Origin: a virus
Taxonomy: Duplodnaviria > Heunggongvirae > Uroviricota > Caudoviricetes
Reading direction: 5' to 3' (one strand)
IMG/VR virus record: IMGVR_UViG_2675903313_000009
Length of the DNA: 64,000 nucleotides
Program-made: the position numbers and the translations under genes
Notes under the pieces: model-generated
The model's database searches: none
Seen by the model: the letters and a program-made list of their open reading frames with translations, nothing else
What the model was told of the DNA's origin: nothing
In this document: positions 15,378 to 49,356 of the stretch, in pieces
Position numbering within the stretch: position 1 is the stretch's first letter
How the letters are laid out: each line of letters starts with the position of its first letter

Positions 15378-16046
15378 ATGACCAAGATCTTTGTGGTTGG
15401 CGGCACAAAGGGCGGGCCTGGCAAATCCACCGTTGCCCAGCAAATTGCCGTTTGCCTGAAAGTCAAAAAGAAGAAGAAGGTTTATATTACCGATATAGAT
15501 ATTCAGCGCACGACAACGAGCTGGTGTGAAGACCGTCGACAGAACGAAGACCTTGAGCTGATTCCTTTTGCATACGTTCAGGATGACATCATTAAGCACC
15601 TAAAATCGCTTCAGGGTAGAGCTGAGTTTGTAGTGGTAGATGCTGGTGGCTTCGACTCCGAAATTCAGCGACAAGCGATGCTGATGGCTGACGTTATCAT
15701 TATCCCGCTGCGTCCTAAGCGTCGTGATTTGAAATCTTTACGTGACATCGATCCTATTATCGACAATGTTCGCAATGTAAACGATAAAGTGAAGGTCCGC
15801 GCGGTCATGAACCAGTGCCCGGCTTTGCCATCACAAGTGTCTCGCATTCTGGCGGCTAAAGAGATTGTTGAGACGTTTGGCATCGAGTCTGCGCCAGTCA
15901 ATCTATATAACCGCAACGTCTATGATGATGCGGAAGAGTCTGGTCGTTCTATCTTTGAAATGACCGGTAGCGAGCGCGACAAAAAGGCGGAAGCCGAGTT
16001 TGAAGAATTTGTAGATTATCTGTTGAGTCTGGAGGAAGAAGAATAA
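15378..16046 (+). CDS. parA: ParA-like partition ATPase
   Basis: Deviant Walker A GGTKGGPGKST at the N-terminus; 222 aa, size of small type Ib ParA. Confidence 0.85.
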   Translation: MTKIFVVGGTKGGPGKSTVAQQIAVCLKVKKKKKVYITDIDIQRTTTSWCEDRRQNEDLELIPFAYVQDDIIKHLKSLQGRAEFVVVDAGGFDSEIQRQAMLMADVIIIPLRPKRRDLKSLRDIDPIIDNVRNVNDKVKVRAVMNQCPALPSQVSRILAAKEIVETFGIESAPVNLYNRNVYDDAEESGRSIFEMTGSERDKKAEAEFEEFVDYLLSLEEEE

Positions 16047-16405
16047 TGTCCATGAAAATGGGTGACCTAGCAAAGCGCAAAGAGCCTGATGCACCGGCTA
16101 AGAACACAACTCCTTTGCGCCAACCAGTCAGACCACAGGGACGCCCGACTCGTGGCAAAGAGAAAATTAAAAGCCGCACAATGTCACTGGAGGACGAATA
16201 CTTCGAACTGCTGGAGATGATGAAGTTCATCCCTCGCTTCGAGAAGTTCACTCGTTCTGACGTGATTCGTGCTGCTATTTTCCATCTTGCGGAGAAGACA
16301 CCGCAGGAAATCGAGGACATCGTGAAACTTAACGAGGCGATCACAGCTGCCGATGTCACGATGCGTACCGATGAAATCAAACGCGAGTTGATGAAGAAAG
16401 GTTAA
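16046..16405 (+). CDS. Small partition partner (ParG/ParB-like)
   Basis: 119 aa, basic N-terminus, overlaps the parA stop; fold assignment not verified. Confidence 0.5.
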   Translation: MSMKMGDLAKRKEPDAPAKNTTPLRQPVRPQGRPTRGKEKIKSRTMSLEDEYFELLEMMKFIPRFEKFTRSDVIRAAIFHLAEKTPQEIEDIVKLNEAITAADVTMRTDEIKRELMKKG

Positions 16406-46159: not shown

Positions 46160-46495
46160 ATGAAGACCATCCCATTCGCGCTGTTGTTTCTTTCTTCGAT
46201 CGTTGTGGCCGACACCACTGTTTATCAGTGTGAAATGTCTGTAGCCGACGTTAAGAATGGCGCTCTTACCGACGTCATAAAAGCACCATATGGAGCGATG
46301 GTCGTAGACAGCGGCGACCAGTTCTATATTGTGCGTGACGATCGAGTGTTGTCATCCCCATATCTCACAAATCGTAATGGCAAATTAACCGGCGTCGGAG
46401 AAGACCACTTCGTATACAACAAATACAAGGGCTTTTATGGCGTTCACGCTTCTCAGCAAAGCTACCTTTTCGATGACTGCAAGGAGGTTGGGTAA
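46160..46495 (+). CDS. Secreted hypothetical protein (111 aa)
   Basis: N-terminal signal peptide (MKTIPFALLFLSSIVVA). Confidence 0.5.
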   Translation: MKTIPFALLFLSSIVVADTTVYQCEMSVADVKNGALTDVIKAPYGAMVVDSGDQFYIVRDDRVLSSPYLTNRNGKLTGVGEDHFVYNKYKGFYGVHASQQSYLFDDCKEVG

Positions 46496-46707
46496 TGGCA
46501 TTAACACTGGCAGGTCTGGAAATCGAGAAAACAAGCGGCTACTGGCGTGCTAAGGGTTTCAAGCAGCCTGGCATTCTTGAGCGTCTGGAACGTGAAGATG
46601 GGTATATCGTCCACCAGCGGCGTGAATGGCGTATGTACGATCCAGAAACAGGAAAACTGACTACAAAAGCCGGAACACTTTGGGGTCTGTTAAAGAAAAT
46701 ACACTAA
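46495..46707 (+). CDS. Hypothetical protein (70 aa)
   Basis: Track ORF overlapping the previous stop. Confidence 0.4.
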   Translation: MALTLAGLEIEKTSGYWRAKGFKQPGILERLEREDGYIVHQRREWRMYDPETGKLTTKAGTLWGLLKKIH

Positions 46708-46753
46708 ATGCAAACTGACTGCGGCTCGTTCCGCAGTCATATTTCATAGTCGT

Positions 46754-47289
46754 CACCGCTGACAGCATACACAATCAACTACCGCTGATAGCATATCGAG
46801 AGTCTATATCACCGCTCACAGCATACTTTACTCGATTTTTTACCGCTGGCAGCATACTTAAGACATTGCATGAATAATGTGTACCGGTATGGGTATAACC
46901 AGAACAAAATTACCGCTGGCAGCATACGAAGGTCTGACATATACCATTAATTACCGCTGATAGCATATCCAAACAAAAATTCCTCAATAAAACACCGCTG
47001 ACAGCATACGTTCTATCAGGGAGCAGCAGGCAATAAATGCCTTTCACTACAAGCAATCAGCGCAATAGCAATAGAATGTTAGTGAGCGCAAACCTATATG
47101 GAATGCACTCTTCGAGGTTAGTAACCACTGGGGAGGTATGACAGAGCATTGAGTGGTGATAGATGATTTACCGCTCACAGCATACGTTTATCTCACTATA
47201 CCGCTGGTAGCATATCTTTAACCGTTCACAGCATACTTTTCAGAAAAATAGCCGCTGATAGCATACATTTCACCGCTGACAGCATATCA
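46754..47289. repeat. Iteron array (about 12 copies of ACCGCTG-R-Y-AGCATAY) downstream of repA, incA-like
   Basis: Copies read at roughly 46754, 46781, 46811, 46842, 46912, 46953, 46994, 47170, 47200, 47221, 47251, 47272, in both orientations and irregularly spaced. Confidence 0.85.
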
Positions 47290-48381
47290 AAGCAGTTTGA
47301 GACTATTGGAAAGGATCTCAATCATCTTGATATTTTCAGGCGTCAAATTCTGCGAAAGTTCGGTTATCTTGTTGATAATGTTCTGTTTGGCATCAATTTC
47401 CCCAGCTTTCTCATCTGGTTTTTTGGGTTCGATGTCTTCAGGTTTTGGCGGTGCGACTTTGAGTTTTGGATTGCGGCTGTGAATCTGGATATAGATCGAC
47501 CGCCCTCGCTTAATCTCGCTGTATTCGAGATAGCCCAAATCTTGGAGAGCTTTTAAGCCGTTACGTATAGTCTGATTCTGCGAGCTGACATTCCTGCTAC
47601 TCAAATTGAGTCGCGCACGTAATCGAGCAAGCGATACCGGCGCAGGCTTGGTTGGAAGACTTTCGATGAAGGTGTACAGAGCCTGTGCTGTTTCTTTGCG
47701 TGGTAGCTTATTGATAACCTTTAACTGCAAAAGAACCTTATGGTCAAAGCGATATAGTTCGGCCAGCTTCGGTTCTGCATAGAACACCACCGTATCTTTC
47801 TGCTCGTTGTAGTCCACGCTATTGATGAGGTGCACCATCAGAAGCGAGATCTTGTTAGAGCCGTCGACATTCTTTTCTTCATACGTTCTCTGAAAAGACA
47901 GAGTTGTACGCATGATCTTCAAAAGACTGTTTGTAAGCCGGTCGCGGAGTGTTTTGCGGATCTGTGACGATGGATAGCCACAAAACTTCGCAAATTTCGT
48001 GATGCTTAACTCGACACGACCGTTAGGTTCGCCGTATTCTGCCAGCGAACGCACAACGCCCACCCACGTTTTGAAATCATGATCCATGTCGAGACGAGGA
48101 CCGGTTATCTTGATATCGGAATAACCTTCAGAACGGGCTACTTCGAGCTGAACAAGCTCCTTTGAAGCATCGATCTCATTTGGCTTATTACGCTTGCTGT
48201 ATTTTGTCCCCTTGAGCGTGGGCACGAACAACCCCAGCCGCATCAACGCAATTGGTTGGACTGTATTGTTGCTATTAGGGACAAGTTCCCCTGTGTACAA
48301 TTCAAGGGAACCTTCTTCAAAGTTGTCGAGATTATCTTCTACTTCTTTGTTATTTTTACCTTTTTTATTTTTTGTGGACAT
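47287..48381 (-). CDS. repA: Iteron-binding plasmid replication initiator (RepA-like)
   Basis: Start taken at internal Met (MSTKNKKGKNNKE...) of track ORF 47287-48501, because the upstream extension is encoded by the iteron DNA; flanked on both sides by iterons. Confidence 0.7.
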   Translation of the reverse strand: MSTKNKKGKNNKEVEDNLDNFEEGSLELYTGELVPNSNNTVQPIALMRLGLFVPTLKGTKYSKRNKPNEIDASKELVQLEVARSEGYSDIKITGPRLDMDHDFKTWVGVVRSLAEYGEPNGRVELSITKFAKFCGYPSSQIRKTLRDRLTNSLLKIMRTTLSFQRTYEEKNVDGSNKISLLMVHLINSVDYNEQKDTVVFYAEPKLAELYRFDHKVLLQLKVINKLPRKETAQALYTFIESLPTKPAPVSLARLRARLNLSSRNVSSQNQTIRNGLKALQDLGYLEYSEIKRGRSIYIQIHSRNPKLKVAPPKPEDIEPKKPDEKAGEIDAKQNIINKITELSQNLTPENIKMIEILSNSLKLL

Positions 48382-48400
48382 GTGGACACCTTTGTCATTC

Positions 48401-48503
48401 AACCGCTGACAGCATACTTGATTTGCCGCTGGCAGCATACCAAAAACAGTTGGCAGCATACGGCGAACCGTTGACAGACTATCAATTACCGCTGGTAGCA
48501 TAC
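48401..48503. repeat. Upstream iteron cluster (4-5 copies of ACCGCTG..AGCATAC), origin iterons
   Basis: Copies at roughly 48401, 48425, 48449 (partial), 48467 (degenerate), 48488. Confidence 0.8.
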
Positions 48504-48539
48504 ATGAACATGGCTTCAGACCAGTCGTGGCGCGGCTTA

Positions 48540-48620
48540 CAGCGATCGGGGATCTTATTTGATCTATACAAGGATCTATCTATGGATCTCTTTATTAGGA
48601 TCTATCCTGTGGATATGTGA
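48540..48620. promoter_or_regulatory. Putative origin core: six GATC sites in about 60 bp within GGATCTAT-type repeats, then a DnaA-box-like TGTGGATAT
   Basis: GATC at about 48544, 48551, 48561, 48573, 48585, 48599; CTGTGGATATG at about 48605-48615; immediately beside the upstream iterons. Confidence 0.6.
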
Positions 48621-48702
48621 ATAATTAAAACAGGCATTTACTACCTTCGGCGCACCTGGTGGGTTATCGTTGCCTCGGCTAACAATCACAGAAAAATGAC
48701 AT

Positions 48703-49356
48703 ATGGATCTAAAACGCACGCGCTGGGTTCGTCGTCTTGAAGACGGCTCCTACACTATCGAATCAAATTCCAACCTGAATAAGCAGAAGTTGCTTTGTGA
48801 CATCTGCGGTATAGCGGCGAAGTGCCCGATCTACGAAACCAGAATTAAACTTGATAAGGCTGGTGTGAATTTTCATTTAAACAGTTGCATCAGGTACGTT
48901 CCATTGCTCGCATTTCGTAAACCGATCATCGGATTGGATGCCCCCTACTTCAACACACTCCGTTCAGGTGTGACGTGGCGAGATCGTTTATCACCAGACA
49001 AGCTGATTTGCCTTGTATCCGCAGACACAGGGAAAATCATCCGTTTTGGGAAAGTAGACAAGGTTTACTCAGGTCCAGTAGACGAAATGTTGCGAAAACA
49101 CAGCCGGTTTAATCATCTCTGTATGGGGGGTGAGAAAATCGAGAAGGTAGAAGAAGTGATCCGCAAATCCTACGGACACTTCCTAACCAAAGATAGCCTG
49201 CTCACCGCAATCTACATCAGACATGTAAAACGTGAGTTCGACCTCGAATACCACAGTGAAGAAGAGCTTAACCTTGTTGACCCACGTCCAAAAGCTGGCG
49301 TCATAAGCATAAACGCAGCGCGTAACGCGCGTAAAAAGCCCTCCGACACGATTTAA
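48703..49356 (+). CDS. Hypothetical protein (217 aa)
   Basis: Track ORF; Cys pair CDICGIAAKC near the N-terminus; no motif recognised. Confidence 0.5.
   Translation: MDLKRTRWVRRLEDGSYTIESNSNLNKQKLLCDICGIAAKCPIYETRIKLDKAGVNFHLNSCIRYVPLLAFRKPIIGLDAPYFNTLRSGVTWRDRLSPDKLICLVSADTGKIIRFGKVDKVYSGPVDEMLRKHSRFNHLCMGGEKIEKVEEVIRKSYGHFLTKDSLLTAIYIRHVKREFDLEYHSEEELNLVDPRPKAGVISINAARNARKKPSDTI

Follow-up and report, generated by a model that had tools for sequence, protein, structure and literature searches.

A probable RepFIB/P1-type plasmid replicon in an SSU5-like phage-plasmid of Escherichia

The low-copy replicons closest to the locus studied here are those of phage P1 and of the RepFIB plasmids. 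In the curated record of P1, an 18-bp DnaA site is followed by five Dam sites, five incC iterons with the promoter PrepA inside, the initiator gene repA, nine incA iterons and the par operon; in RepFIB plasmids, experiments identify the downstream iterons as the controlling and curing determinant (PMC11983097). Replicons of this kind are also found in elements that are both phage and plasmid: the SSU5 supergroup was defined by Pfeifer et al. (PMC7969092), Lanza et al. likened the 109-kb ST131 plasmids to P1 and put them in the class 'phage-related/RepFIB (Rep3 superfamily)' (PMC4270462), and Falgenhauer et al. reported that pECOH89 and p09EL50 have identical RepA proteins, and that the pECOH89 protein shares 48% identity with pLF82 RepA (PMC3999498). 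The IncFIB rep genes of the SSU5 group are already present in PlasmidFinder-type tools (10.1101/2025.09.12.675607), and the literature already counts these elements in the SSU5/pHCM2 supergroup, as RepFIB plasmids related to phages. We examine here the repA locus around positions 46,754 to 48,620 of the virus record IMGVR_UViG_2675903313_000009, a stretch of 64,000 nucleotides called the window below, which covers 64 kb out of the roughly 110 kb of the element.

We find that this locus very probably belongs to the RepFIB/P1 oriR family and serves as the theta replicon by which an SSU5-like phage-plasmid of Escherichia, of the pECOH89/p09EL50 type, is maintained as a plasmid. As far as its sequence can tell, the module consists of an initiator gene, two sets of initiator-binding repeats, and an origin with DnaA boxes and many GATC sites. 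The analysis yielded directly the homology and fold of RepA, the number, phasing and orientation of the sites, the homology of the origin to P1 oriR, and the conservation and co-variation of these parts; from them we infer that the module functions as a replicon. An original prediction, made from the letters of the window, had proposed the oriR-repA-incA layout of P1: every structural element of P1 is indeed present, in the same order. The features are the following.

46716..46739, no strand: hairpin of 9 bp with six GC pairs, terminator-like in both directions, at the outer limit of the replicon
46753..47012, minus strand: distal cluster of seven control iterons (46756-47008), spaced by 26-70 bp, in the same orientation as the origin iterons
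47013..47167, no strand: spacer of 155 nt between the control clusters, holding a conserved block, CCCAGTGGTTACTAACCT ... TCACTAACATT on the minus strand
47168..47290, minus strand: proximal cluster of five control iterons (47171-47286), incA-like
47287..48381, minus strand: repA, 364 amino acids, an initiator of the Rep_3/RepFIB family, its ATG preceded, 6 nt away, by the Shine-Dalgarno sequence AAGGTG
48400..48506, minus strand: five origin iterons (48403-48502) with the core TATGCTGYCAGCGG on the minus strand, an incC-like array
48507..48543, minus strand: GC-rich (59%) linker with GCCGCGCCACG at 48536-48526, a motif kept in P1 oriR according to the alignment
48544..48606, minus strand: AT-rich block (34% GC) with six GATC (Dam) sites, the presumed region of unwinding and of sequestration by SeqA
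48608..48624, minus strand: two adjacent DnaA boxes, TTATTCACA (48624-48616) and ATATCCACA (48616-48608), at the outer edge of the origin

The initiator and its origin

Lack of homology between RepA and the Rep initiators had been named, in the original prediction, as the outcome that would speak against it. The search returned the Rep of the F-plasmid RepFIB at 52% identity, with an expectation value (E) of 2e-110, and, by tblastn against phage records, the RepA of P1 and P7 at 43.5% identity over residues 32-309 (E 2e-64). The same tblastn comparison gives 99.5-99.7% identity with the Escherichia phages PhiR41_1 and CMS-2020a, 85-87.5% with SSU5-like phage-plasmids of Klebsiella, and 47.9% with SSU5 and Cyrano; this last value is the published figure for pECOH89 against pLF82. 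The P1-type label thus holds in part: RepA has a clear homologue in P1 and the origin can be aligned with that of P1, but RepA is nearer to RepFIB than to P1. A large protein database yields 477 homologues, named RepB-family, RepA or RepFIB, and PHROGs assigns the protein to phrog_775 (4.6e-133). The Pfam domain Rep3_N, the first winged helix (WH1), is found at 3.9e-9, above the cutoff of the family; NCBIfam assigns no family, and there is no detectable sequence similarity to the RepE protein of RepFIA (E 0.26).

A sequence search of the PDB with RepA returned nothing at E up to 1, and folds were compared instead. The AlphaFold model, built on 30 of the 477 homologues, has a mean predicted local distance difference test (pLDDT) score of 71.6: residues ~65-305 lie mostly between 72 and 92, with a dip to ~55 near residues 221-230, and the pattern of helices and sheets is the expected one. 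Foldseek matches this model to domains 2-3 of RctB (E 4e-7), to RepE (2.5e-6), to the WH1 domains of MSBI1.176 and of pPS10 RepA, and to TrfA. The TM-scores of these matches are low, from 0.22 to 0.34, because of disordered tails and of the orientation of the domains. On the strength of the model, RepA is taken to be an iteron initiator with two winged helices, WH1 and WH2. Its residues 310-364 form a C-terminal tail, in which a linker rich in proline and acidic residues is followed by two helices; P1 RepA lacks this tail, SSU5 RepA has it, and the Rep of F RepFIB aligns with part of it.

Two database labels attached to this family deserve a comment. The repA gene of RefSeq encodes 404 amino acids and starts at the ATG at 48501, 40 codons earlier than the start retained here, which makes it read through the origin iterons (48382-48501). 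The start at 48381 has the Shine-Dalgarno sequence and fits the N-termini of P1 and SSU5 RepA in a three-way alignment, and many assemblies are rotated to that very position; the longer form is probably a start-site error. The homologues of RepA in P1, P7 and SSU5 are called 'replication helicase' in the phage records of RefSeq (NC_005856, NC_050152, NC_018843 and others) and in PHROGs (phrog_775): they are Rep_3 winged-helix initiators, not helicases.

Around repA, the iteron pattern CCGYTSRYAGCATA, allowing at most one mismatch, has 16 matches in the 64-kb window where 0.26 are expected, and none of 100 shuffled sequences reaches 16. All 16 lie within 46756-48502, all on the plus strand and in one orientation. 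A looser scan adds a degenerate fifth origin iteron at 48468-48481, which brings the totals to five iterons upstream of repA (48403-48502) and 12 downstream (46756-47286), where four or five and about 12 had been predicted. The upstream iterons are regularly phased, with start-to-start distances of 21, 21, 21 and 23 bp.

The GATC sites are clustered too: the six sites predicted within about 60 bp are all there, at positions 48544, 48551, 48561, 48573, 48585 and 48599, and span 59 bp. The segment 48544-48602 is the sole spot of the window with at least four GATC per 80 bp and, assuming that the 266 GATC sites of the window are placed uniformly, the probability of such a cluster anywhere in it is about 0.0009. 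Five of the six sites have the heptamer context (A/T)AGATC(C/A), like the heptamers of P1 oriR, and the block aligns with the five Dam sites of P1. At the outer edge, the DnaA-box-like sequence that had been noticed, TGTGGATAT, is the reverse complement of ATATCCACA, so this box stands at 48608-48616; what had been missed is the abutting second box, TTATTCACA, which extends 4 nt past position 48,620, the end of the replicon as first drawn. Each of the two boxes is one mismatch away from TTATCCACA. They align with the tandem boxes of P1, TTATCCACA TTATCCACT, and on this basis DnaA is predicted to bind them; the tandem pair is kept in the relatives from Salmonella, Rosenbergiella and a K. pneumoniae phage, and Klebsiella sp. 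L012 has one box there.

On its host-factor side, the origin can be aligned with P1 base by base: TTATYCACA-TATCCAC, GGATAGATCC, AATAA, the repeated (A/T)AGATCC, CGATCG and GCCGCGCCACGnCTGG. The design with DnaA boxes and GATC heptamers is also found in the F RepFIB origin, in a Salmonella RepFIB plasmid and in SSU5; since P1 and all these replicons have it, it is a trait of the family.

If the locus works as its P1 and RepFIB counterparts do, RepA monomers would bind the five in-phase origin iterons, host DnaA would bind the two boxes at the edge, and the adjacent AT-rich block of Dam-methylated GATC heptamers would open. After firing, this block, then hemimethylated, would be sequestered. 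The repA promoter is presumed to lie inside the origin iterons, where bound RepA would repress its own gene.

The downstream control array

The first control iteron of the proximal cluster abuts the stop codon of repA, and iteron 9 of P1 likewise starts at the repA stop. The predicted match to incA is borne out by the presence and place of a downstream array and fails on its arrangement: the 12 control iterons are all direct, and those of P1 are three direct and six inverted. By analogy with the work on P1 and RepFIB, we would give this array a role in copy control and incompatibility: its iterons would titrate RepA and pair with those of the origin ('handcuffing'), which would keep the copy number low and define incompatibility. 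The iteron itself differs between systems, TATGCTGYCAGCGG here, TGTGTGCTGGAGGG in P1 and CTATCCACTGTAGTGAG in SSU5. Since it is unlike both, an incompatibility specificity of its own is expected, and the iteron sequence likely defines one distinct from those of P1 and SSU5/pLF82; compatibility with P1 and with elements of the SSU5/pLF82 type is predicted.

The number of control iterons is not constant among relatives. Direct counts for the distal cluster come only from PhiR41_1 and from two Salmonella contigs with the same RepA: PhiR41_1 has nine, with four in the distal cluster (the three missing ones correspond to window positions 46756-46856), and the Salmonella contigs have 12 and 11, with seven and six in the distal cluster. 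The K. pneumoniae phage pJN2-26 has eight, Klebsiella sp. six and Rosenbergiella four. By contrast, the DnaA box or boxes at the origin edge, five or six GATC sites, an origin array of five slots and its 21/23-bp phasing are kept in Escherichia, Salmonella, Klebsiella and Rosenbergiella. Under the P1/RepFIB model one expects just this, a constant origin facing a control array of variable size, here 4 to 12 copies.

Could the array serve another purpose and be, for example, a centromere for partition or a second origin? Its bipartite shape, with a conserved block that is not an iteron between the clusters, would fit such a role, and so would the fact that the partition genes are unlinked to the replicon; no centromere was identified, centromere repeats not having been looked for. 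However, the repeats are the same RepA iterons as in the origin, they occupy the position of incA from the stop codon of repA onwards, and the downstream iterons of RepFIB are enough by themselves for displacement (PMC11983097). A motif scan also finds neither DnaA boxes nor a GATC cluster beside the array. We hold a role other than negative copy control to be very improbable.

Still less credit, indeed next to none, can be given to the reading of the pJN2-26 GenBank record (MZ779062), where a pair of 20-bp repeats, one on each side of repA, bears the labels attL and attR, as if the direct repeats were the attachment sites of an integrated prophage. Apart from this label, the facts point elsewhere: the repeats exist in 13-17 copies instead of two, they lie on both sides of a Rep_3 initiator, phased by 21 bp and next to DnaA boxes and Dam sites, and the element is a circular plasmid. 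The repeats annotated attR and attL, at 1378-1397 and 2648-2667 of pJN2-26, are RepA iterons flanking repA, and a prophage tool that relies on repeats has almost certainly produced these labels by mistake.

The conserved block of the spacer has its core at ~47060-47135, reading CCCAGTGGTTACTAACCT ... TATGTTTGCGYTCACTAACATT on the minus strand, and contains two YACTAAC motifs about 41 nt apart, one of them within the palindrome GGTTAcTAACC. Among the relatives compared, the motif is present only in the Escherichia, Salmonella and K. pneumoniae-phage loci, and in pJN2-26 the block is located past the last iteron. Klebsiella sp. L012, Rosenbergiella L013, SSU5 and P1 do not have it; since the more distant relatives L012 and L013 lack it, the motif is not a core part of the replicon. 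An operator repeated over the phage genome was considered and ruled out, there being no enrichment of the motif elsewhere in the window. No Rfam family matches the region 46400-48800 at E up to 1, hence no known RNA regulator is present. One may still imagine a control locus that does more than a P1-style incA, in which the 65-nt spacer block would be a site for a phage or host factor coupling copy control to the choice between lysis and lysogeny, and in which the 12 direct iterons, with their natural variants of nine and 11 copies, would adjust the copy number and, with it, the dosage of cargo genes, blaCTX-M-15 for example; we think this unlikely.

Two further observations concern the surroundings of the iterons. 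Small conserved open reading frames lie on the opposite strand downstream of the control array. A 19-nt inverted match (18 of 19 positions) joins the repA codons for LAEYGEP, at 48026-48044, to origin iteron 3 and its spacer, at 48451-48469. This inverted repeat is kept in PhiR41_1. As a dimer operator or a long-range pairing in the mRNA it was rejected, the coding copy not being kept at synonymous sites in Klebsiella and Salmonella; it may be specific to the lineage or due to chance.

The carrier element and its relatives

A megablast search with the 2-kb region matched 143 plasmid records, 118 of them with a coverage of at least 80%: 119 are from Escherichia, the rest from Shigella, Salmonella, Cronobacter and others, and 136 of the 143 are non-mobilizable. 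Among the matches listed, most plasmids are about 110 kb long and some 62-76 kb. The identity is 97.5-99.4% in about 120 Escherichia/Shigella plasmids, p09EL50 being among the matches at 98.5%, and 98% in phage PhiR41_1, whose listed host is K-12. In 120 plasmid records, the 601-nt region of the control array has a match that covers 80% or more of it, with 97.5-99.7% identity. A scan of genome contigs for relatives gave two loci only. Such near-identical DNA in plasmid records, and its occurrence in phages of the SSU5 group, agree with the lifestyle of a plasmid prophage that had been proposed for the window.

The window is largely collinear with the plasmid pEC881_2, at 94-98.6% identity with few variable gaps. 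The annotation of pEC881_2 lists tail genes, dnaE, a DnaB-like helicase, a primase, a ligase, 3'-5' and 5'-3' exonucleases, RecA, NrdAB and ThyA, with a phage adenine methyltransferase just past the end of the window; the phage replisome announced by the original prediction is thus represented there by its dnaE, helicase, primase and ligase.

These replication genes raise the question of whether the repA locus still matters. It could be a vestige, the element being maintained through another origin that uses its own DnaE, DnaB-like helicase and primase, with repA and the iterons no longer in control. Several facts weigh against an active replicon: the element encodes a large replisome set, so that another origin may exist, and the window covers only part of the element; among the five origin iterons, two carry 2-3 mismatches and are degenerate; and the right-hand DnaA box beside the start of repA, GTGTCCACA, has two mismatches, where GTATCCACA in the relatives and CTATCCACA in P1 have one each. 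A standard promoter scan found no minus-strand sigma-70 site at threshold upstream of repA, and a looser one only weak candidates inside the iterons, TTGATA-19-TATGCT and TTGGTA-18-AAGTAT, with scores of 7-9 out of 12 and non-optimal spacers. Against the vestige, the repA reading frame is intact, all classes of sites are conserved across genera, and the 2-kb region is nearly invariant in the plasmids just described. In pEC881_2, the one record examined, rep_cluster_488 is the sole replicon type listed. Moreover, RepA and the iterons diverge together between lineages, which implies selection on their interaction. We consequently regard a vestigial locus as improbable, more so than the extended control locus imagined above, and keep the reading of an active maintenance replicon.

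The joint divergence is best seen against SSU5 (L004). Nucleotide similarity to SSU5, at 74-77% identity, ends at 46705 and resumes at 48543, and the proteins that flank the replicon are 94% and 85% identical to those of SSU5 (SSU5_068, SSU5_070). With conserved flanks around a RepA of 48% identity and iterons that are not related, the initiator and its full set of iterons (46706-48542) have diverged as one unit. Judging from these alignments, the part of the origin that would receive the host factors, with its DnaA boxes and GATC sites, belongs to the conserved backbone, and the segment 46706-48542 fits a specificity cassette, co-evolved or exchanged. Such sharp boundaries would illustrate how cassettes made of an initiator and its iterons are exchanged, or diverge, on a fixed phage backbone.

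Next to the origin and divergent from it lies an open reading frame of 217 amino acids (48703-49356, plus strand), which belongs to phrog_2105, of unknown function, is 85% identical to SSU5_070, and has no Pfam domain. SSU5 and the relatives from Klebsiella and Salmonella have it at the same place, beside the origin. One more feature is needed for the partition function.

15378..16405, plus strand: candidate partition genes, a 222-aa ParA-like ATPase (15378-16046) and a 119-aa partner (16046-16405), 31 kb from the replicon

A ParA system had been predicted at this place, and a ParA-like ATPase is there, matching phrog_164 at 4e-51 and MipZ/AAA_31; its partner belongs to phrog_5111 and has no Pfam match. 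The system is made of two genes, its ParA is small and unlinked to the replicon, and it is not P1-like. No type Ia parA-parB-parS operon was seen next to the control array: the 222-aa protein is the sole ParA seen.

The element and its RepFIB-type initiator have been sequenced many times and described, and the replicon is an ordinary and already known one; for this reason its interest is low. In the literature, we came across no map of the iterons, GATC sites and DnaA boxes for the pECOH89/p09EL50 lineage, and such a map is a direct consequence of homology. The main yield is thus an annotation confirmed, with the window identified as a pECOH89/p09EL50-type, SSU5-like phage-plasmid and its replicon mapped to the base, a level of mapping that is poor in public records. 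The practical value is modest; the array of 12 iterons is the obvious fragment for curing or copy-number work on elements that sometimes carry blaCTX-M-15.

Comparison with known systems

The original prediction suggested a comparison with the P1 and RepFIB replicons: carried out here, it finds that both initiators are homologous to RepA and that the origin designs are alike. More remote systems, mini-F RepFIA (ori2, repE, incC) and chromosome II of Vibrio cholerae with its RctB, share the fold with two winged helices and the logic of iterons plus a control array. The differences are the lack of sequence similarity to RepE noted above and another architecture of the origin.

With P1 and P7, the locus shares its general plan: tandem DnaA boxes, GATC heptamers, five iterons phased by ~21 bp, repA, and a second array that starts from the repA stop. 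The spacing of the P1 incC iterons is 21, 21, 21 and 22 bp, against 21, 21, 21 and 23 bp here. The RepA proteins are 43.5% identical across the whole length of P1 RepA, and the part of the origin with the DnaA boxes, the GATC sites and GCCGCGCCACG can be aligned at the nucleotide level. The iterons are similar in size and have only the left half, GTRTGCTG, in common: the right half is YCAGCGGTAA on one side and GAGGGAAA on the other. Unlike P1, with its nine control iterons, three direct and six inverted, the locus has 12 direct ones, in two clusters around a 155-nt spacer. Its RepA has 31 more residues at the N-terminus and 55 more at the C-terminus. It is without an adjacent type Ia parAB operon, whereas in P1 parA directly follows incA, and the phage that carries it is an SSU5-like element, equipped with a DnaE-based replisome of its own, instead of a P1-like myovirus.

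The closest characterised initiators are those of the RepFIB replicons (F, P307, pO157 and other enterobacterial IncFIB plasmids): the Rep of F is 52% identical, part of the C-terminal tail included. The F RepFIB origin also has a DnaA box and five GATC heptamers, and in RepFIB too the iterons lie both upstream and downstream of rep, the downstream set being the controlling one (PMC11983097). The differences are that the iterons of F and Salmonella RepFIB are of the ATAAGCTGTAGTGAG type, and that the replicon described here is carried by a phage-plasmid, not by a conjugative F-like plasmid.

Finally, SSU5, pHCM2 and pLF82 (Cyrano) have their replicon at the same genomic position, between the same flanking genes (neighbours 85-94% identical). 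With SSU5, the DnaA/GATC part of the origin is 77% identical, and RepA is of the same length class and has the same C-terminal tail. However, RepA is only 48% identical, the SSU5 iterons (CTATCCACTGTAGTGAG) are unrelated, and direct and inverted copies occur together in the SSU5 control array. Compared with SSU5, the replicon of the window is a different specificity allele at the same locus.

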